Shown here: positions 3,434 to 29,195 of the stretch, piece by piece
Position numbering within the stretch: position 1 is the stretch's first letter
Layout: every line of letters starts with the position of its first letter
Assembly (NCBI GenBank): GCA_965227835.1
Contig: OZ245768.1
Coordinates: 1,050,001-1,082,000 of the forward strand
Source of the DNA: Candidatus Saccharimonadota bacterium
Lineage (GTDB): Bacteria; Patescibacteriota; Gracilibacteria; BD1-5; UBA6164
Direction of reading: 5' to 3'
DNA: 32,000 nt
Notes under the pieces: generated by a model
Databases searched by the model: none
What the model was told of the DNA's origin: nothing
Seen by the model: only the letters and a program-made list of their open reading frames with translations
Translations under genes and position numbers: made by a program

Positions 3434-4541
3434 CTATTTTTTGTTAAATTATAGCCATTTTTATATATAATTTAGGATTTTAGACGCAATCCACCTAAGG
3501 AAACTAATCTAAACTATTGGGACTTCCTCTAAAACAACTAATCTTTTGAGATTAAAAGATATAGCTTCCATAAATGCAGTAAACTGATTTTTTACTACAG
3601 ACTTATACCTCACTCTATGATTCATTTTTGAAAATACCCTCTCATAAGGAGATCTAAGTTTAGAATAAAACTTATCTTTATCCTTGTTCTTATCTTTCAT
3701 ATTATTTTTCTTTATTGCACATAGATGTAATCACTTCTTTTTTGTTGATATTACAGCCGGTCAAATACAATATCACTTATCAGCATATACTGCTCATGAA
3801 CTTGGTAATACATGCTTCATTCACTTTGCATCTGTTACATTAGCTTGAGTTATAGCTATCTTGTTTATCATTCAAGATTGCATATCAACACTAGTATGTT
3901 TTTTATATCCATACCAAAATTTATTTTTTCATTTAGATCAAATTTTAGCTTCCTTATCATTAGCAACTTTTGGAAGAGTTTCATTATTCATTTTTTCATA
4001 TCATTCTTTTATTCATTTATCTCTTTCTTCCCATAAATTAGCTTTAGTAACTAAATGAGAAGCATCTACAAATGTAAACACTTCACTCATATACCCCTTA
4101 TTTGATAATTGATTTTTTAAATCTTCAAATATCTTTGATAGTTCATTTGTTCATATCTTTTTTCTTGCTCTTGAGAATATACTATAATCTGGAGTTTTAT
4201 CTGTTAATTTAAATCAGCAAAACCATTTACCAGCTAGATTTTCTGCAAGATATTTCTCTAACTCTCTATCTGATAAATCTTCCATAAACTGGATTAGTAA
4301 ACATAGAAATAATTTTTTTACTCAATATCATACATGAGTTTTTCATAGATCTATATTTTTTAGTATTTTATTTACTCAATCAAAGTTCCACAATTTCTTA
4401 AATTTACGATATTGATGATTTTCTGGAATTAGCTCGTTTAGGATAACAAAACTTATTTGATTTGATTCTCACATAGGTATTTTCTTAGAATATAATTACT
4501 ATCTAATTATATCTCTTTTTTCTCTTTTTAATAGTCAAAGT
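3434..4541 (-). mobile_element. IS5-family insertion sequence; ends not determined, so the interval is the maximal intergenic-bounded span
   Basis: Single DDE transposase gene between two intact unrelated genes. Only a weak AT-rich inverted match was seen (about 3463-3478 versus 4501-4514), so the boundaries are uncertain. Confidence 0.45.
3509..4474 (-). CDS. IS5/IS4-superfamily DDE transposase, 321 aa
   Basis: ATG 4474-4472, TAG 3511-3509. N-terminal InsH/DUF772-like LCLLIQFMEDLSDRELEKYLAENLAGKWFCGF..TPDYSIFSRARKKIG. DDE signatures VDASHL, AVYADKGY and RSPYERVFSKMN..RVRYKS. About 17 of about 20 Gly codons are TGA. Confidence 0.85.
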
Positions 4542-5695: not shown

Positions 5696-8600
5696 TTAAT
5701 TGTATGATTCTTTTTTTGATATATCAAAAAATCTCTCAAAAAAATTATTGAGTTTATCGATAACTGATTCTTTTTTTTGTGTTCTTGCATTGTCTTTTGA
5801 AAAACGGGAAATTGGTGGTAGGATTTCTGCTATTTGTGTTCATGTTTTTTGTATGTATCCATCTCTGAAAGCATTTTCTATGAAAGTATAGGTTTTTTCT
5901 TGATCAAGGTTTTCACTTTTGATGATTTTTTCTAGTTCTTCTCTTTTCTTTTCTTCTACAAATTTCATCCAATCTTCATCAACGGATGAATACATATCAA
6001 GTGACTCAATAAACTGATCTATCAGATCTTTTTTATTACGAAGCTCAATACTTGCATTGATTGCTTTGTTAATATCAATTAAAATTTCTTTATCTTTGGT
6101 ATTGTTTAGATGATATTTTTTTATGAGCTCAATAATATAATCAATATTAATTTCTATTTGTTTTATGAGTTCCATTTCAAAAACGAGATCATCGTTTATA
6201 TTTTCTTTTTCCCCTTTTTCTCATTTTCTAAATTGAGTATAAAGGTCTATGTATAAACCATGATAGTCTTGCAAATTTCTTTCCGTTAAAATTTGTTTGT
6301 CATGAAACTCATCAAATGTTTTTAAAATATTGAGAAGTTTTAAGACTCAACTATAGAGTTTCACGAATTCTTTTTGTTTGCTTTCTGAGATTATTGGTTC
6401 TCAGAGTGGGAATTGGTGTTTTAATTCGGATATTAATTTTTTGTATCATTTGATTTCTTTCTCTTCATCCATATATCCGTTGTAGTAATCTTCAAAATCT
6501 TTTAAAAGCACCATACCACTTGCATTTTTATCACCAAAAAGAGAAATAGCATCGTCTGTAGCTTTTTCTAGTTTTCTAAAACATATGACATTTCCAAAGG
6601 TTTTGATACTGTTTAGTATACGATTTGTTCTTGAAAAAGCTTGAATAAGTCCATGGTGTTTTAGGTTTTTGTCTACCCATAGGGTATTGAGAGTTTTTGC
6701 ATCAAATCAAGTTAAAAACATATTTACGACTATAAGTATGTCTATTTCTCTATCTTTTACCCTCTGACTGACATCTTTATAATAATTTTGAAATTTATCT
6801 GAGCTGGTATCATAAGATGTGCCAAACATTTCGTTGTAATCTCAAATTGCACTTTCTAAAAAGTCTCTGGATGTCTTGTCTAGGTTACTTGTGTCTTCTA
6901 GATTTTCAGATGTAGTACCATCTAATTCTTCTTCATTTGTAGCATAGCTAAATATGGTAGCTATTTTCAATTTTTTATCACTTGGAAGTCAATCCATTTG
7001 TTTTTTAAACTCTTCATAGTAGATCTTTGCCATTGAGATAGAAGAAACTGCAAATAGAGAGTTGAATCCTGCGAGTCTTTTTTCATCGAGTTTGTAAAAA
7101 CTGTTTCTTTTGGTTTTTTGATCAAAGTGTTCGAGGATGTATGCAACAATATTTGAAATTCTTTTGCTTGAAGATAGAGCTTTTTCTCTGTCAATATCTG
7201 TAATAGATTTGTCTTCTATATTTTCTTGTTTCTTAAATGTAGAGATATAGTCGAGTTTAAATGGTAGCACATTTTTATCAGCAATAGCATCAACAATAGT
7301 GTATGTGTGAAGTTTTTCTCAAAATGCTTGTTTTGTAGTTTTTAGGTCTAGGTGTTTTCAGGATGATGAGTTTATAGCAAATATGGGTGTTCAGGTAAAA
7401 CCAAAGAGATAGTACTTTTTAAATGCTTCGGTAATTGATTTATGCATATCACCAAATTGCGAGCGATGGCATTCATCAAATATCAATACGATTTCTCCAT
7501 CAAATATAGAGTGTCATTTGTTTTTTTTGATAAATGTATCGAGTTTTTGAATCGTTGTGATGATAATTTTTGCTTTTGGATTTTCTAATTGTTTTTGGAG
7601 CTTAGCCGTACTCGTATTACTATTCGCTGCTCATTTTTCAAATTTCTCATATTCTTTCATGGTTTGATAATCCAAGTCTTTTCTATCAACTACGAATAAT
7701 ACTTTTTTTATATGTGGTAGTTTACTGGCTATTTGTGCTGTTTTGAAACTTGTAAGTGTTTTTCATGAACCTGTCGTATGCCATATATATCAGCCTGCTT
7801 CTATGCTCCCATATTTTTTATGGTTTGAGCTTGTTTGTATTTTTTCAATTATTTTTTCGGTGGCTATGATTTGGTATGGTCTCATCACTAAGAGTTGTCT
7901 TTGGGAGTCAAAGACACAGTATTTGGTCAGGGTTTTTAAGAGTGTGTTTTTAGCAAAAAATGTTTTGGTGAAATCAACTAGATCAGTAATTGGTTTGTTT
8001 GTATAATCAGCCCACCAGCTGGTAAACTCAAAACTGTTACTTGTTTTTTTTGATTTTACGGATTGTTTTTTTGTTTGTTCTTTTACATGTGAGTATCGAG
8101 TTGTATTGCTATAATATTTTGTGTGTGTTCCGTTTGAGATGACAAATAGTTGGATGTATTCAAAGAGTCCACTATCTGCCCAAAAGCTTTCTCTTGAATA
8201 TCTGTTTATTTGATTAAATGCTTCTCTTATGGCTACTCATCTTCTTTTGAGCTCTACATGTACTAGCGGGAATCCATTTACGAGTATTGTTACATCATAA
8301 CGGTTTGCTCTTGTTCATGTATCTGTTTTGTATTGGTTTATGACTTGTAGGTGGTTTTTGTGGATGTCTTTTTTATCTAGCAAGTAGATATTTTTAGTTT
8401 CTCAGTTATCACGAGTTAAGATTTTTATGTAGTCTTCTTGGATTGTGGCTGTTTTGTCTTCTATGTTTTGGTTTGGGTTTGATATTTCGGTTTTGAAAAA
8501 GGTGTTCCATTCATTGTCACTAAAAGTGTAGTTGTTGAGTTTTTCTAGGTTGTTTTTTAGGTTTTTTACCAAATCATCATTGTTACTAATATTTATATAT

Positions 8601-8752
8601 TGGTATTCTTGGGACTCTAGTTGTTTTATAAACTCTTTTTCAAGTTCATCTTCGCTTTGATAGTTTTCTGCTTTTTTTGCAGATGGTGTGTATTTTGATA
8701 ATATGGTTGGTTGAGTTTTTGGAGTGTTTGGGTTTATATTTTCGTTTGTCAT
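5696..8752 (-). CDS. hsdR: type I restriction enzyme R subunit, 1018 aa
   Basis: ATG 8752-8750, 14 nt after the hsdS stop. TAA 5698-5696. Motif I TTGSGKT (Gly = TGA 7763-7765), motif [13 protein letters not shown]-terminus [14 protein letters not shown]...[13 protein letters not shown] typical of HsdR. Track fragments 8402-8809, 6989-7270 and 5840-6175 share one frame. Confidence 0.95.
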
Positions 8753-8765
8753 GATGATGTATAAT

Positions 8766-10139
8766 TTAGTAATATTTATAAGCAATTGTATAGTTGGGGA
8801 GTCTGGCAATAATTCCGTATTTTACGGCTTTTTCTATTTTTTTTGATAGTCTATATCTTTTTGATTTTCCTTGGTATTTTAGTGGTACTCCCATTGGGAC
8901 AGTTGGAGCATTATTGTCGGGAGTGTAGTTTGAATTTTCTGAGTTTTTACTTTCAGGGGGATTGATATTTTTAAAACTCAAAAGCTTTTCTCTATAGTAC
9001 TCATATTGTTTTCTTCTGGCTTCTATTTCAGCTGGGAGACCTATGGATATATCGTTTACGAGGGCATCAAATGTATCAAGTATTTTTACTATCTCCTGCT
9101 GTCTTTCTAAATCAGGTTTTCAGTTTTTGTATGGGATAGGCATAGTAAAACTCGAATACTGCTTAGCATTAATGTTTGGTTGTGATCATGTACTCTTATT
9201 TTTTTCTACAAATGTATTATAATAAGTAGTCTTAGTATAGTGATATACAAAACTAGATAATACTTGAGTGTTATCTGCAATGAAACGAATCAAATAACCA
9301 GCGAATATTGATTTTCAATAACTGCTAACATACCTGCATGTTTTTCATACGGTAGCACCACTACGGGCAAATAGTATATCTCATTGGTTTAAAAGATATT
9401 TATCTTCATAATAGCTAGGTGATTTTCCTTTATTATTCAACAATCCATCATCTGATATATCTGTTATTCTAACATACCTAACATCCCCATCAAATTCTAC
9501 TGCAGATGCTCAAGATCAATACTCTAGAGGTTTCACAGTAAGACTTCACAATTCCTTCCACTCAACCTCCTCATCTTCAAAACTCAACAACTCATCCCTA
9601 TAATACTCATACTGCTTCTTCCTCGCTTCTAGCTCCGCTTCTAGCTCCGCTTCTAGCTGGGTGAATGTATCAAGTATTTTGACTATTTCTTGTTGTACTG
9701 GAAGGGGTGGGATGGGGATTTGGATTTTTTCAACATCTTTTGTATAAACATGAGGAACCCCACCTCCCTTTTTGAGGTCGTGAATTTTATACTGAATACT
9801 CAAAAGAAAATGATAAATAAACTTGATAGATATATCACTTTTCGCTTTGATTGAGAATGCATCTGAAACATAAATTGGCTTATTCCAATACATCACAAAA
9901 CCAGCATAAGCACCAGAACCAGCAACCGTAATAGTTTCTCCGATTCTATTACTTTTATTATGGAAATAAGCAGGTTTTTGTCCTCAAGCAATAACAGGTA
10001 TTCCCCCAACAATAATATCTTTCTTTGTAATCGATTGACCTCTTTTTAGTTCACAAACCTCCCCAAACTCTTTAAACTCCACCCCATCTGGACACAGCTC
10101 TTCAATAAGTTTTTCAATACTTGTTTGATTGTTACTCAT
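8766..10139 (-). CDS. hsdS: type I restriction enzyme S (specificity) subunit, 457 aa, with an extra 68-aa C-terminal tail
   Basis: ATG 10139-10137, TAA 8768-8766. Two target-recognition halves, each followed by a conserved helix: [39 protein letters not shown] and [36 protein letters not shown]. 9 in-frame TGA. Confidence 0.9.
9624..9659. repeat. 12-bp tandem repeat x3 (cgcttctagctc) inside the hsdS central conserved region
   Basis: Units at 9624-9635, 9636-9647 and 9648-9659 (last base differs). Encodes (LEAE)x3 on the minus strand. Confidence 0.9.
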
Positions 10140-10159: not shown

Positions 10160-10636
10160 TTATGAACTTTTTTCTGTAAATCCTTCAAAGAATCCAAATA
10201 GCTTTTCACTACTACGAATATCTCGTATACGATCAAGAAGCTCTTTCCAATAATTCCTTCATCATATTCACTTCAATTTTTCATCATCCATCGTAAAACC
10301 TTTGATCATATATTTTTTGAGTCTTTGAGTTGCCCATTGACGGAAATGAGTTCATTGAAGAGAACGAACTCTATATCCTACGGATATTATAACATCGAGA
10401 TTATAATAATTTGTGAGTTTTTGCTGAAATTCGGAATTTCCGAATTTCTGTAATGTTTCACTTTCTAACAATTCTCATTCACTATAAATATTTTTTATAT
10501 GTTCATTTATTGTGGATTTTGCTTTACCAAAAAGAGCACTCATTTGATCTTGTGTTAGCCAGACTGTTTCGTTATCTAACTCCACCTGAAGTTTCAAATC
10601 TCAGTCATTTCATTTATATATAATTATTTCACTCAT
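10160..10636 (-). CDS. RhuM-family protein, N-terminal half only (158 aa; truncated relative to the roughly 330-aa family norm as I recall it)
   Basis: ATG 10636-10634, TAA 10162-10160. IIIYKGNDGDLKLQVELDNETVWLTQDQMSALFGK...YNLDVIISVGYRVRSLQGTHFRQWATQRLKKYMIKGFTMDDEKLKG..RIRDIRSSEK matches the RhuM N-terminal region. The ORF ends soon after DIRSSE. 7 of 13 Gly codons are TGA. Confidence 0.8.
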
Positions 10637-10654: not shown

Positions 10655-12904
10655 CTAAGCTCTTTCTATCTCTCCAACGTTCTGATTGCATAGGTCACAA
10701 ATTTTTGAATATAAATTTTTCAATTCATCTATTCCCATATCTAAAATAGGTTCATACATAAAAGAATTGAGATGAATATTCTCGGGAGTCATAATATTAA
10801 CGCTCTCCAACGTTCTGATTGCATTGGTGTGTAATTCGTATTCTTTAAATTCATCTTTATATCTTTGAAAGAGTTTTCCTGTTTGATTTCCAATAATTTC
10901 TTTTTTTTCAGTAACTTGCCACCACATGTATTGTTCTGCCTTTAGTCTAATTGCTATTGCGAGAATTATTTTATTTTCAAGATTAAAATCTGTGTCAGAA
11001 ATGTCATTGGCTATTTCTTCTATCTTAGAAAATACAATATCACTATCCCCAATAGATGAATCAAAATCATCTTTGTCTAAATACTGTTTATAAACTTTCT
11101 TTAAATGCCCAAAGTTTACTTTTTCTGTTCCAGACTTTTTGTGCAAAAGTTTCGTTAGCAGGTCAAAGTCCCCACTTGCCCAATCAAGCCCACTTACATT
11201 GTGATCAACTCCATATTCAATTAAGTTTCTCACAAAAGGGACAAGCGCAATTATATGCTTTATTGCATCTGCACTTGAATAATTTTTATCATAATATATG
11301 CCAACTGACATGCATTCTTTCCACGTTTTAAATGGTGCATTTTGGTATACCTCTTGGTTGAGTATTATCTCATCCTTATTTTTCATAGCATGAAGTCTGT
11401 TTTTTCGCTTAGTATTTAGTCGACTGCAAATTGTGCGATAAAAATCAAAGTTATGGGTGAAAATAATTGAATAAAAGCTTTCTTCTTTAGACAAATCACT
11501 TAGATATTCCACAATCGCATACTTATTCTTATAATCAAAAGAATCGGCAATATCGTCGATAATAAATAGTGTTTCTTTATCCTGTAATTTTCTAGATTTA
11601 ATTCCAAAAATGACATTCAAAAGATAAAAAGCTCTCTTTTCTCCTTGGCTTAGTATATTTTCAACCATATCTTGCCTATCAATAGTTTTTCCCATATATG
11701 AAAACTCTAGTGTTGGAGTTTCGTTTTTGAGCACAGCATCTGGTATATTTTTGATATGCATTTCAAATGGCATATCAACAAATCTGTTTTTGAACTCTGC
11801 AATGGCATCTTGCCATGCTCCTTTATTTTTATTTGCTTCATCTATTAGCTTTTTTAGCTCATCTTTTTTACTGTTGTAAGATTTAATTAATTCTTCAACT
11901 CCTGGCTGTATTTCCTTCAAAAAAGAATACCAAACAACTTTCCTAAACCCTTCGTAGTCCTTGAGTCGAGTGAGTAGTTCTGGATTTTTGTTAATAGCTA
12001 TTTTTAATCTTCGCAATTCCTTATTTCCGTCCAATGCTTTGTCTAATTTATCAAATGTCTTTTTTAAATCAGGGTTAGAAAAAATGCTTGAAATTTCTTT
12101 TTCGATAGTTTCTTCTAACTTACTTTGATTAGTAATTGATTCTCTATCATTTAATGATAGACCATGCCCAACAGAGAAATATTCTCCACCTTCTAGGCTC
12201 TTGTTAAGAGATTTTGCTTCAGCTGTTCCAAATGTGGTTCCATCCTTAGTGCTAAAAAAACTAGACTTTTCAATAAGGCTTTTATATTGCTGAAAATATT
12301 CTTCCAAAGTTTCCGAGTGATTTTCTAAAAATCCTTTAACTTTTCCATTTGCGTCAAAAACATCATTATATGCAAATTCAAATTTTTCTTTAGAGGCTTT
12401 TATTGATTCAATAATTCCCTCTAAAATCTCATAAATATTTTCCTTTTTTAGGTCAGCAAATGCTCCAAGAATTTCTTCTCCAAAATTTGAACTTCCAGAA
12501 ATCTTTTTTAGACCAGAGAAAGCCTTTGCTTTCTCGCCTTCAATCTCCTTATATATTTTTAAGTAGCGTTCTCTTTGGTTATCATCTGCTAGCAATATCA
12601 AAATATTTTTTTCAGAGTCTAGGACTTTTTCGTTATATGGCTCAATTACACAAAATTGCTTAGGATCTATTTTTGTGCCTTGTTCACTATCAATCAAAAA
12701 ATTATATTGAGATTCTAAATCAGGATTGACTTGATCACAGGGGTTTTTCCCATCAAATAAGGTTTTAGCTGTTTTAGCAAAAGACGTTTTCATCACCCCG
12801 TTTGGAGCATAGATCACAAAGGTTTTGCACTCTGAAAAATCAAACTCATGCTCAAGTTTTTTTATTCCATAACAATGCTCTAGTTCAATTTTTAACTTTT
12901 TCAC
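10655..12904 (-). CDS. PrrC/RloC-like ABC-type (AAA_13-like) ATPase with a long coiled-coil insert and a C-terminal putative anticodon-nuclease/HEPN-like region, 749 aa
   Basis: Uninterrupted ORF even under the standard code; GTG start 12904, TAG 10657-10655. Walker A-like VIYAPNGVMKTSF, ABC signature-like LSQGEKRAFY, Walker B LFIIDDIADSFD, H-loop IIFTHNFDFY. Then VPFVRNLIEY...LLHKKSG, an R-N-L-x-E...H pattern like the PrrC triad context as I recall it. Sits between hsdM and hsdS. Confidence 0.75.
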   Translation of the reverse strand: MKKLKIELEHCYGIKKLEHEFDFSECKTFVIYAPNGVMKTSFAKTAKTLFDGKNPCDQVNPDLESQYNFLIDSEQGTKIDPKQFCVIEPYNEKVLDSEKNILILLADDNQRERYLKIYKEIEGEKAKAFSGLKKISGSSNFGEEILGAFADLKKENIYEILEGIIESIKASKEKFEFAYNDVFDANGKVKGFLENHSETLEEYFQQYKSLIEKSSFFSTKDGTTFGTAEAKSLNKSLEGGEYFSVGHGLSLNDRESITNQSKLEETIEKEISSIFSNPDLKKTFDKLDKALDGNKELRRLKIAINKNPELLTRLKDYEGFRKVVWYSFLKEIQPGVEELIKSYNSKKDELKKLIDEANKNKGAWQDAIAEFKNRFVDMPFEMHIKNIPDAVLKNETPTLEFSYMGKTIDRQDMVENILSQGEKRAFYLLNVIFGIKSRKLQDKETLFIIDDIADSFDYKNKYAIVEYLSDLSKEESFYSIIFTHNFDFYRTICSRLNTKRKNRLHAMKNKDEIILNQEVYQNAPFKTWKECMSVGIYYDKNYSSADAIKHIIALVPFVRNLIEYGVDHNVSGLDWASGDFDLLTKLLHKKSGTEKVNFGHLKKVYKQYLDKDDFDSSIGDSDIVFSKIEEIANDISDTDFNLENKIILAIAIRLKAEQYMWWQVTEKKEIIGNQTGKLFQRYKDEFKEYELHTNAIRTLESVNIMTPENIHLNSFMYEPILDMGIDELKNLYSKICDLCNQNVGEIERA

Positions 12905-12922: not shown

Positions 12923-13234
12923 TTAAGAATATATACCCCAATCTCTCGGTACATCCCAATCATATGGAGGATCCCAACTTATATAATCAGCTGGATCAAA
13001 ATGTTCATCTAAGATCTCTATATTTATAATATCTTCGCTCTTTGCTGACGAGGGATGCCCTGTTTCAATGTGCCAAGACCAATATCTCTTTATATTATCT
13101 TTAAATTTTTTTCAAACAGCATAATCATGGGGAATACATTTTCTTTCAATTATACCCTTTTCTTTGGAATTTCTTTCCATTAAGATAACTTTTTTTTCCT
13201 TGATTGCTTGTAAAAATTTGTCATGATTTGTCAT
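12923..13234 (-). CDS. hypothetical protein, 103 aa (orf103), between hsdM and the ATPase gene
   Basis: ATG 13234-13232, TAA 12925-12923, one in-frame TGA. Sequence MTNHDKFLQAIKEKKVILMERNSKEKGIIERKCIPHDYAVGKKFKDNIKRYWSWHIETGHP...WDVPRDWGIYS. Its stop is 18 nt upstream of the ATPase start. Confidence 0.6.
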
Positions 13235-13270: not shown

Positions 13271-14818
13271 TTACTTAGCTTCTATCTCTGCAACTATCTC
13301 ATCTATTGATGACCTGAGAACACTCTGCTTTTCTACGATTTCTGCTATATCTTTATTGAGTTTTACTATATCAATAACTTCTCTTGTATCTTCCTGCTCC
13401 ACATAACTAGAAACAGCTATATTATAATCATTTGATTCTATTTCTGAGTTTTCTACAAGCCTAGAAATATAGTCTTTATCTTCCCTTTTTGTAAAACAAT
13501 CAAGTATATTTTTGATATTGTTTTCACTGAGTTTATTTTTGTTTCATCATCTAGTGCATTCATTTGTCGCATCAATAAAAAGAGTTTTGTTGTCTTTTTT
13601 AGATTTCTTTAAAACAATTATACAAGTAGCAATTGGGGTTCAGAAGAATAAATCAGATGGTAGCTGAATAACACTATCTATATAATTGTTATCAACTAAA
13701 TATTTTCTGATCTTTTGTTCTGCTCATCATCTATATAAAACTCATGGAAACTCTACTATAGCACAAGTCCCCGTCGTAGAAAGAAAAGACAACATATGCA
13801 TAGTAAAAGCTAGATCAGCCTTACTCTTTGGAGCAAGTACTCATGCTGGAGAAAAACGGGGATCATTTATCAAAATAGGACTAGAATCTCATTCCCATTT
13901 AATTGAATAAGGAGGGTTTGAAACAATTGCATCAAAAGGTCCACTATCCCAGTGATTGGGCTCTAAGAGAGTATCTCCATGAGTGATATCAAATTTCTCG
14001 TAGCTAATATCATGGAGAAACATATTGATACGACAAAGGTTGTAGGTAGTGAGATTTATTTCTTGTCAATAAAATCCCTGTCTTACATTTTCTTTTCATA
14101 GAACTTTAGCAAATTTTAGAAGTAAAGAACCAGAACCACAACACGGATCATATACTTTGTCTACTTCTTTTTTTCAAACAGTAGTTATTTTAGCCAAAAG
14201 TTCACTTACTTCTTGGGGAGTAAAAAACTCTCATCAAGATTTACCTGCATTTGAAGCATACATCGTCATGAGATACTCATAAGCATCTCCAAAAGCATCA
14301 ATACTATTATCAGCATAATTCCCTAGTTTTAAGTCTGCTATTGCTTCTAATAAGTCTGTAAGTTTTTTATTTCTTTGTTCTACTGTTGCACCGAGTTTAT
14401 TTGAGTTTACATCTAAATCATCAAATAATCCTTTTATATCATCTTCACTATCCGTCCCGCTTGCTGAAGCTTCTATATTTTTAAAAATTTGTGAAAGTGT
14501 TTCGTTTAAATTGGGATCATTTTTAGCTTTTTTCAAAACATTTACAAAAAGTTCACTTGGTAATATATAAAAACCTTTTTCTTTTACTGTTTCATCTCTT
14601 CAATATTCAGCATCATCATCAGATAGTTTTGCATAATCAAAATCAAACTCATCTTCGTCTTCATTTATGTATTTTATAAGATTTTCACTTATAAAACGAT
14701 AAAAAAGCATCCCTAAAACATATTGTTTAAAATCCCAACCATCAACACTTCCTCTAAGTTGGTTTGCTATCTGCCAAATAGATTTATGCAGCTCTGCTCT
14801 TTCTTGTTCTTTTGTCAT
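13271..14818 (-). CDS. hsdM: type I restriction enzyme M subunit (N6-adenine DNA methyltransferase), 515 aa
   Basis: ATG 14818-14816, TAA 13273-13271. HsdM N-terminal domain [36 protein letters not shown], AdoMet motif [12 protein letters not shown], catalytic [13 protein letters not shown]. About 13 in-frame TGA. Track fragments 14600-14818 and 14234-14536 are in the same frame. Confidence 0.95.
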
Positions 14819-22384: not shown

Positions 22385-22810
22385 ATGTTTAGTAGAATTT
22401 TGGCACTATGTTTCTTCTTACCTGCAATTCTTTTATGGGGTGGGCCTATGTTGTTAAATAACCCTAAAATATCTTTATTTAGTACCTTAATGGCAATAGG
22501 TTTATTATCTGTAGACTACTTAGTAAAACAAAATACTAAGTTTAGTTTTCAGGTAATTTTTAGTACTGTGGTAGTAGTGATTGGATTTAGCAGTCTTTCT
22601 ATTGCTATAGTTGATATCTTAGCAGGAGATATTTATGGATTAGATTTTGTAATTACTATGAGTTTAACCATATTTATATTATTGCTTATGTCAGAAGAAA
22701 TATATGAAAATGTTTTCATGTATTATGCTGAAAAGCAATATTTACCTCTATATTCTTCCTTAGTAATATCCTTGGGAATTATTGCTTTGGTATCATTTTT
22801 GCCTGTATAA
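22385..22810 (+). CDS. hypothetical polytopic membrane protein, 141 aa
   Basis: Intact ORF in the track. Strong SD, four hydrophobic segments, terminator immediately downstream. None of its 7 Gly codons is TGA. Confidence 0.7.
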   Translation: MFSRILALCFFLPAILLWGGPMLLNNPKISLFSTLMAIGLLSVDYLVKQNTKFSFQVIFSTVVVVIGFSSLSIAIVDILAGDIYGLDFVITMSLTIFILLLMSEEIYENVFMYYAEKQYLPLYSSLVISLGIIALVSFLPV

Positions 22811-28062: not shown

Positions 28063-29011
28063 TAGCTTAAGTTATTTTCACATTTTCTAATACATCTTTT
28101 ATTATTTCTTCTGGTTTTATTTCATCTGCTATAGCTTCATAGTTTAAAACCAGTCTATGAGCCAAGGTTGGGATTGCCATTTCTTTGATATCTTCAGGAG
28201 TTACAAAATCTCTAGAGTTTAGAAATGCCAGAGTTTTTGATGCTTTTAAAAGTGCTATACTTCATCTAGGAGAAACTCAATAAGAAAGGTATTTATGATT
28301 ATTTCTTGTTTGAGTTATAATATTTGTTATATAGTCTATAATATTTTCAGAAACATGTAGCTTTTGTATTTCTTTTTTTATGTTATCAAGCTCTCTTTTA
28401 GAAAGTATTTTTTTTGTTTTAGAGTTTTCTATATTTTCTATATTTTTTAAAATAGTTATTTCATCTTGTTTACTGGGGTATCAAACATAACTTTTCATCA
28501 TAAACCTATCTAGTTCTGCTTCTGGAAGTTTGTATGTTCCTGATTGCTCTATAGGGTTTTGAGTTGCCAAAACTATAAAAGGTTCTTGTATTTTAAAACT
28601 TGTTTCTCAAATAGTTACTTGTTTTTCTGCCATAGCTTCAAGTAGGGCTGATTGAACTTTACTTGGAGCTCTGTTTATTTCATCTGCTAGAAGAAAATTA
28701 GTAAATATTGGTCATTTTTTTGTTTTAAATTCTTGGGAGTTTGGACTGTATATTTCTGTCCCTATAAGGTCACTTGGTAGTAGATCAGGAGTAAATTGTA
28801 TTCTTGAAAAATCCATGTTTAATGTTTTGCTAAGTGTGTCTGCTGTAAGGGTTTTTGCTACACCTGGTACCCCTTCGATTAATATATGTCATCCAGAAAA
28901 AAGTGATATTATTATATCTCTTATAAGATTTTCTTGTCATATAATTTTTTTATGTATTTCAGAGGTTATTTCTAGTATTAAGCCATTTTTTTCTTGTATT
29001 TCTTTTTTCAT
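28055..29011 (-). CDS. moxR: MoxR-family AAA+ ATPase; literal ORF 318 aa, but the conserved C-terminus is in the +1 frame and ends at 28066
   Basis: ATG 29011-29009, checked codon by codon. [96 protein letters not shown]. The literal frame ends at TAA 28057-28055. The +1 frame from 28140 reads [27 protein letters not shown] (28068-28066). Confidence 0.85.
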
Positions 29012-29195
29012 AATTTTTTATTTAGATGTTTAAGTTTTATTATTATATATTTTTTAAATTTTTTTAAAGTGGAATTTGTGAGGTTTTAGTGGTGTAAATT
29101 AAATATGAGGAAAGTCCAAACACACAATCCAAATCTTTTTTGTATTCCACAAAAAACAAATATAATTTTTCAAAAATAAATTTAAATACATAAAA

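Follow-up and report, generated by a model that had tools for sequence, protein, structure and literature searches.

The PDC families of candidate defence genes are defined by their embedding in BREX, DISARM or Type I restriction-modification (R-M) systems, and comprise 145 as yet untested candidates (Payne et al., bioRxiv 10.1101/2024.01.29.577857). Relatives of one of these families, PDC-S46, are found in at least 549 species genomes distributed over many phyla. In bacteria of the candidate phyla radiation (CPR) its members typically lie between hsdM and hsdS, a layout shared by at least 12 related loci, and no paper that we found mentions PDC-S46 by name. Here we describe a further member of the family, a predicted ATPase of 749 amino acids (aa) encoded on the reverse strand at positions 10655-12904 of a 32-kb stretch of contig OZ245768.1 (hereafter the window, to which all coordinates refer). 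The window protein matches the PDC-S46 hidden Markov model (HMM) over its full length, and its gene, like those at loci L004, L005, L010, L011, L084-L086 and L090, is embedded between the hsdM and hsdS genes of a Type I R-M operon. It differs in being preceded by an open reading frame (ORF) of 103 aa, with which it forms a two-gene cassette, in possessing a tail of 17 codons that stems from a junction scar, and in being free of TGA codons in a genome that reads TGA as glycine (genetic code 25).

Foreign DNA retains the codon usage of its donor on arrival and drifts towards that of its host during residence, the process of amelioration in the concept of Lawrence and Ochman. The window, in which three strata of TGA usage may be distinguished, fits this concept, although its marker is a qualitative one and not an average of composition. 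Since an in-frame TGA is impossible in a functional standard-code donor gene, TGA density can be read as a one-way clock of residence. We put at roughly 85% the probability that the absence of TGA from the ATPase gene results from very recent horizontal import from a standard-code lineage and is a signature of short residence time, not of adaptation. A search of the literature found no account of imported genes that lack TGA in code-25 genomes. TGA-free, 'code-11-compatible' phages have been predicted for Gracilibacteria and Absconditabacteria (mBio 2023, PMC10746230) and, like the cassette, are code-25-associated mobile DNA lacking in-frame TGA and readable in both codes. The cassette differs from them in being a 2.6-kb chromosomal segment that has neither phage genes nor any match to phages or viruses, and in having a dated counterpart in a standard-code chromosome.

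Glycine codons across the window

The window is very AT-rich, with a G+C content (GC) of 22-34%, and almost all of its long reading frames are interrupted by TGA if the standard code is applied and become continuous once TGA is taken as a sense codon. The ATPase gene, which starts with GTG and stops with TAA, is the sole ORF longer than 141 aa that is intact in the standard code, as a first-pass annotation of this DNA had stated. Codon counts also bear out the statement in that annotation that none of its 36 glycine codons is TGA: all are GGN, namely 22 GGA, 3 GGT, 3 GGC and 8 GGG. By comparison, TGA occupies 14 of the 30 glycine codons of hsdM, 9 of 31 in hsdS, 18 of 38 in hsdR and 7 of 13 in a RhuM fragment, while an IS5-type transposase and an aldo/keto reductase elsewhere in the window have 17 of 20 and 19 of 30, respectively. 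The neighbour counts in the first-pass annotation were essentially right, that for hsdM having been given as about 13.

When genes are pooled, TGA accounts for 251 of 377 glycine codons (66.6%) in the native genes outside the R-M island, a baseline consisting of 22 genes in the 32 kb. The corresponding figures are 48 of 112 (42.9%) for the four genes of the R-M island and 1 of 40 (2.5%) for the cassette, that is, the small gene plus the ATPase gene. The window therefore holds three residence-time strata, at 67%, 43% and 2.5% TGA. If glycine codons were drawn at the island rate, the probability of finding no TGA among 36 would be 1.8e-9, and with the native rate it would be 7e-18, in line with the earlier argument that chance is an improbable cause. 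TGA usage in the ATPase gene differs from that of the island with a Fisher p of 7e-8, a result that holds after correction for approximately 28 genes. The island is itself below the native share (Fisher p = 9e-6), so that the operon partners cannot be called fully adapted to code 25, as had been proposed.

The reading of TGA as glycine in the window was verified by homologue alignment. Glycine lies opposite the TGA codons of the window in 133 of 195 cases in standard-code HsdM homologues and in 110 of 153 cases in standard-code HsdR homologues, whereas Trp is almost never found there. Code 4, in which TGA encodes Trp, was ruled out by the same alignments. No tRNA gene is present within the 32-kb window.

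Base composition gives a coarser picture. The GC of the ATPase gene (31.3%) is that of hsdM (31.3%) and close to that of hsdR (30.4%), against a native background of 22-27%. GC thus sets the whole R-M island apart from the native background, not the ATPase gene from its partners, and was rejected as a discriminator within the operon. The earlier impression that the ATPase gene is less AT-rich in stretches did not survive this comparison, a single 100-nt stretch (11100-11199) reaching 40% GC.

The limits of the TGA-free tract are sharp and coincide with those of the transferred segment described below. The last two glycine codons of hsdM before the cassette (codons 426 and 427) and the first two of rhuM after it (codons 15 and 18) are all TGA.

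A near-identical copy in a standard-code genome

A blastn comparison revealed a copy of segment 10698-13246 (reverse strand), which comprises the 103-aa ORF and nearly all of the ATPase gene, in two contigs of a single ENA assembly (L001 and L002, the latter of 439 kb), with 93.7% identity over 2552 nt. That genome follows the standard code: no in-frame TGA occurs in 20 genes, four of which stop with TGA, cases of 4-nt ATGA overlap included. Its GC is 45-52%, compared with 31-34% for the cassette within it, and the cassette lies there between rpsB and an AAA_15 gene, outside any R-M operon. Each host was placed by one marker. The V-ATPase subunit A of L002 has Gracilibacteria and Peregrinibacteria proteins as its nearest named relatives, at 66-70% identity, which suggests a relative of these two groups, and the MoxR protein of the window has Gracilibacteria proteins, at 58-69%, which suggests a Gracilibacteria-like organism.

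A sister genome of L002, represented by a 1.06-Mb contig (L092), is 95-97% identical to the L002 flank, but homology is lost about 115 nt short of the cassette, on its upstream side, and a different gene stands beside rpsB (L092:1-544 compared with L002:9553). No copy of the cassette at 90% identity or above was recorded on the 1.06-Mb contig. In the standard-code host the cassette lies at a breakpoint that varies between strains. Its unrelated context in L002, its low GC relative to that genome and the loss of homology in the sister genome together indicate that the cassette is a recent arrival in both hosts.

The small gene (12923-13234, reverse strand) was transferred together with the ATPase gene. 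Its product has no match in Pfam, NCBIfam or PADLOC, and outside the window the ORF was seen in L001/L002 and, in a 41% identical version, at locus L080, but nowhere else. It contains the single TGA of the cassette, at codon 42, aligned with a GGG in L002, which shows that code 25 now governs the evolution of the window copy. Comparison with the L002 copies gives a ratio of nonsynonymous to synonymous divergence (dN/dS) of 0.17 for the small gene (0.038/0.220) and of 0.32 for the ATPase gene; dS between the two copies of the cassette is about 0.14. These ratios imply that both genes are under purifying selection and functional.

Substitutions were polarised using L003, which is 72% identical, as outgroup. 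The window branch carries 58 substitutions, of which 2 are G>T, and the expected number of GGN>TGA changes since divergence is about 0.2 over the 36 codons. With G>T changes so few, neutral recency already predicts that no TGA should be found. In a neighbour-joining tree of PDC-S46, built without support values, the window and L002 copies cluster with those of L003 and P0016, and P0003 and P0004 belong to the sister clade. None of these last four contains TGA, nor do the genes around them, some of which, such as the upstream gene in L003, use it as a stop. A standard-code origin of the cassette is thus the parsimonious and most likely reading of the tree. The code-25 copies of the family are polyphyletic in this tree, which implies that the family crossed the code boundary several times and that older imports gained TGA.

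The right-hand junction of the cassette bears a scar, which supplies the last 17 or so codons of the ATPase gene. Beyond the sequence ...LYSKIC the reading frame enters a 26-nt out-of-frame copy (10670-10695) of a segment internal to the ATPase gene (10803-10828, encoding TNAIRTLES), to which it is identical at 25 of 26 positions. This is followed by approximately 22 nt resembling the 3' end of hsdM together with a stop codon (10655-10678). The internal segment is found in L001/L002 as well, while the 26-nt copy is absent at this place in L002. Comparison of the repeats shows that the resulting ATPase tail, ...VGEIERA-stop, resembles the HsdM C-terminal consensus IVxEIExx-stop, and that the present 3' end of hsdM (13271-13302; ...IVAEIEAK-stop) forms the left copy of an imperfect direct repeat around the cassette; all these elements lie on the reverse strand. 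The core GTTGSAGAG occurs three times on this strand in the 32 kb, in each case at one of the three repeat sites, and L002 has the internal copy only. A simple target-site duplication or att-site model was rejected since the similarity of the repeat copies is only about 80% and a 26-nt templated insert accompanies them. A microhomology-mediated illegitimate join would account for the junction better than either.

The import may be pictured as follows. A cassette of about 2.6 kb, consisting of the 103-aa ORF and the PDC-S46 ATPase gene, would have entered a Type I R-M operon, at the slot between hsdM and hsdS, in a Gracilibacteria-type host reading TGA as glycine. If the source lineage used the standard code, the ATPase gene would have arrived with GGN codons only, most of them GGA, and the time corresponding to a dS of about 0.14 to the nearest copy would have been too short for GGA to drift to TGA in the host. 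The direction of movement would be from the standard code to the code-25 host, possibly by way of a third party. Illegitimate recombination guided by microhomology at the 3' end of hsdM, accompanied by a short templated insertion, would probably have placed the cassette there and pushed the resident hsdM 3' end downstream. The near-identical copy, the genomic contexts of its clade, the scar and the very low expected number of TGA changes all lend strong support to recent acquisition from a standard-code donor, one of the two explanations offered in the first-pass annotation.

Competing explanations

Several points weigh against recent import. The donor was not found, and the closest copy outside this genome, at 6% divergence, was likewise imported into its host. 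The direction of transfer is deduced from parsimony on a neighbour-joining tree that carries no support values. Nor was a vector found: there was no close match to a phage, plasmid or viral contig, and a phage or plasmid vehicle was rejected as a candidate after searches that gave no phage match, no viral-contig relative and, among plasmids, distant family members only, at no more than 15% coverage. The native baseline of TGA usage represents the 22 genes of this window, not the whole genome. The GC of the cassette equals that of its operon partners, so that base composition alone carries no mark of a newer age. Lastly, the window branch has 20 GC>AT against 35 AT>GC changes; this lack of visible AT amelioration fits recency but gives no positive clock.

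A more ambitious proposal, which we regard as rather unlikely, builds on the import. The cassette would be a code-agnostic mobile defence module that circulates among TGA-glycine and standard-code CPR bacteria, enters hsdM 3' ends by microhomology at GTTGSAGAG with no recombinase of its own, and is held TGA-free by lineage-level selection for portability, the density of TGA-glycine serving as a one-way clock of import. The selective component, taken as an explanation in its own right, supposes frequent moves between code-25 and standard-code CPR hosts, such that the copies which keep spreading are those free of TGA both as sense and as stop codon. A copy bearing TGA-glycine would no longer work in a standard-code host, and transfer could even run from code 25 to the standard code. 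The observations agree with this in several respects: the one cassette is present in one code-25 genome and one standard-code genome at 94% identity, both of its genes stop with TAA or TAG in both hosts, the polyphyly of the code-25 copies means that crossings recur, and the TGA-free phages of Gracilibacteria and Absconditabacteria provide a precedent. The cassette GC of 31% is, furthermore, much closer to that of the code-25 host than to the 45-52% of L002. This last argument loses its force, however, because low GC is a trait of the PDC-S46 family whatever the host, the gene having a lower GC than its flanks in nearly all of the 80 loci L004-L083 (for example 0.39 against 0.66 at L024 and 0.30 against 0.48 at L007), so that it provides no pointer to a code-25 donor and is unusable for inferring donors at all. 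All the nearest relatives with readable context reside in standard-code hosts, a TGA has already arisen in the small gene of the window, and a single crossing is documented for the window clade, for which neutral recency predicts zero TGA in any case. Continual shuttling under selection is therefore the weaker account, possible but not required by the data, and we give it only a small chance.

The second explanation in the first-pass annotation, selection within the host for a code-neutral effector that is translated correctly even if an invader alters the decoding of UGA, is very improbable. It draws on the anomaly itself and on the status of the gene as a defence candidate. Orthologues in similar R-M operons of four TGA-sense genomes, all with the order hsdM-ATPase-hsdS-hsdR, nevertheless use TGA for glycine about as freely as their neighbours do. 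The orthologue at L050, in a Ca. Absconditabacterales genome, has TGA at 19 of 25 glycine codons (hsdM 66%, hsdR 77%), that at L085 at 10 of 24 (neighbours 23-45%), that at L086/L087 at 6 of 26 (neighbours 15-53%) and that at L084 at 4 of 22 (hsdM 6%). These orthologues refute the idea of code-neutral selection. The partner small gene has a TGA, the RhuM fragment, itself an embedded defence candidate, has 7 in 13 glycine codons, and the TGA-free tract matches the transferred segment exactly. Two properties of sister orthologues had been singled out for checking in the first-pass annotation. Ordinary TGA-glycine usage was indeed present; a vertical phylogeny was not, and the polyphyly of the code-25 copies instead agrees with repeated import and a slow accumulation of TGA afterwards.

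Finally, an assembly chimera or standard-code contamination, although suggested by the sharp compositional and codon boundaries and by a source that is probably a metagenome-derived genome, is scarcely credible. The small gene has an in-frame TGA at a glycine position, which would truncate it in the standard code; the intervals that separate the cassette from hsdM and rhuM are as tight as in an operon; at the junction a second, diverged copy of the resident hsdM 3' end is joined in frame; and an identical 749-aa protein is on record from a 1.49-Mb contig.

The ATPase, its operon and the rest of the window

The PADLOC HMM for PDC-S46 matches residues 1-738 of the ATPase over positions 1-718 of its 719 (E = 3e-227, 754.7 bits), while no Pfam family scores above threshold. 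In an AlphaFold model with a pLDDT (predicted local distance difference test) of 83.4, residues 1 to about 520 are predicted to form an ABC head of the SMC/Rad50/RecN type with a helical insert between its two lobes. Foldseek comparison of the model with SMC, Rad50 and RecN heads yielded a probability of 1.00 and E values of 2.4e-6 to 1e-4. The remainder, residues 511 to 749 approximately, is modelled as an all-alpha C-terminal domain (pLDDT 86) for which Foldseek returned no match with E < 0.3 in the PDB or among the viral models of BFVD. Attempts to name this domain through Pfam, a sequence profile search of the PDB and hhalign comparison with a PrrC-like protein likewise yielded nothing.

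The Walker A region (residues 33-41; 12779-12805) lies in the sequence YAPNGVMKTS and has Met at the place of the second Gly in the canonical GxxxxGK[ST]. This residue, M38, is nearly invariant, and K39 invariant, among 55 homologues. With this substitution, PDC-S46 proteins may depart from the usual mode of ATP binding and hydrolysis. In the homologue alignment a signature-like LSQGEKR (418-424) and the Walker B motif LFIIDDIADSFD (446-457) are invariant or nearly so, and weak NCBIfam matches to RecF and to ABC transporters cover residues 412-523. In the C-terminal domain R653 and H711 are invariant in the 55 homologues and E657 nearly invariant. The arrangement R653-x3-E657 plus H711 recalls, in its spacing, the Arg-Glu-His triad of PrrC, to which it might correspond.

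The closest described systems may be compared on these features. The SMC/Rad50/RecN-type head, helical insert, signature-like LSQGEKR and Walker B are shared with Septu PtuA, Lamassu LmuB and PARIS AriA, against which Foldseek gave E values of 6e-4 to 8e-3. The window protein differs from these in the Met of its Walker A (APNGVMKT), in having no partner nuclease gene, and in its fused C-terminal domain without a fold match. With the anticodon nucleases PrrC and RloC, ABC-ATPase effectors that are likewise embedded in Type I R-M loci, it has in common an N-terminal ABC-ATPase part, an all-alpha C-terminal domain and location in an hsd operon, and the context of its P-loop, YAxNGxxKT, is similar to that of a PrrC-like AAA_13 protein. 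It does not, however, match Pfam AAA_13 (PF13166) at E <= 0.01, and the 32.1 bits obtained by relative P0111 fall short of the 36-bit cut-off. Alignment by hhalign of the family profile with the PrrC-like protein of L086 covers only 39 columns around the P-loop, with a probability of 16%. The ATPase thus appears PrrC/RloC-like in logic and, by these sequence comparisons, falls outside PrrC/RloC. The gene for the PrrC-like AAA_13 protein, of 372 aa (L086:4829-5947 and L087:4802-5920), stands between hsdS and hsdR in an R-M operon of a code-25 genome that also contains a PDC-S46 orthologue. PDC-S46 and the PrrC-like gene are distinct modules able to co-reside. Most likely the ATPase would serve as a sensor with a fused all-alpha effector in a second line of anti-phage or abortive-infection defence within the R-M locus, and the cassette as a whole would act in this way.

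The operon that received the cassette is encoded on the reverse strand. Pfam matches identify the methylase gene hsdM (13271-14818; N6_Mtase, E = 2.8e-113, and HsdM_N), the specificity gene hsdS (8766-10139) and the restriction gene hsdR (5696-8752), the ATPase gene lying between hsdM and the hsdS/hsdR pair. Between the ATPase gene and hsdS is an N-terminal fragment of RhuM, also classed as PDC-S05 (10160-10636), that retains about 150 of about 330 residues, its homology ending at residue 147 or thereabouts; hsdS follows directly after it. RhuM adjoins PDC-S46 also at loci L013-L015, L022, L027, L035 and L079.

TGA is distributed patchily within two of the operon genes. In hsdS, codons 1-131 (9750-10139), corresponding to the first target-recognition domain (TRD), have TGA at 1 of 14 glycine codons and the later part at 8 of 17. 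Similarly, the N-terminal third of hsdM (codons 1-194; 14240-14818) has 1 of 11 and the later part 13 of 19. Such patchiness suggests mosaic recombination, for example TRD swapping, with standard-code alleles. The island HsdM and HsdR are 73-80% identical to proteins of standard-code CPR operons and of other code-25 operons alike. When HsdM identity was plotted against ATPase identity as a test of allele replacement, the window pairs fell inside a broad scatter.

Three further observations concern other genes of the window. The IS5-type DDE transposase gene (3509-4495, reverse strand; DUF772 and DDE_Tnp_1), with its 17 of 20 glycine codons as TGA, belongs to a mobile element and yet is fully adapted to code 25, unlike the cassette. 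A second TGA-free gene (22385-22810, forward strand) encodes a predicted membrane protein of 141 aa with no Pfam family. It has TGA at none of 7 glycine codons (P = 4.7e-4 at the native 66.6% rate, borderline after correction for approximately 28 genes) and could be another recent import or a product of chance. Thirdly, the public protein P0241 is the MoxR of the window (28067-29017) except for W at all 7 TGA-glycine positions, and P0005, P0028 and P0076 have W in conserved glycine columns, from the same translation of TGA as Trp. These entries call for caution in annotation: gene calling in the standard code leaves only TGA-free genes intact, and the public collection holds this genome as TGA = Trp.

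The case is a fresh import of a known candidate defence family across the code boundary, by an ordinary mechanism and of a kind that specialists would expect; what is new is another PDC-S46 family member, caught soon after a cross-code import. In practical terms, the share of TGA among glycine codons offers a one-way marker of residence time in code-25 genomes, one that also points to possible mosaic recombination within hsdM and hsdS. For the biology of these organisms, the locus provides a concrete instance of transfer between a TGA-glycine, Gracilibacteria-type genome and a standard-code relative, at 94% DNA identity and a dS of about 0.14. Such transfer implies that recoding is no barrier, at least to import, between these lineages and the common pool of defence genes.

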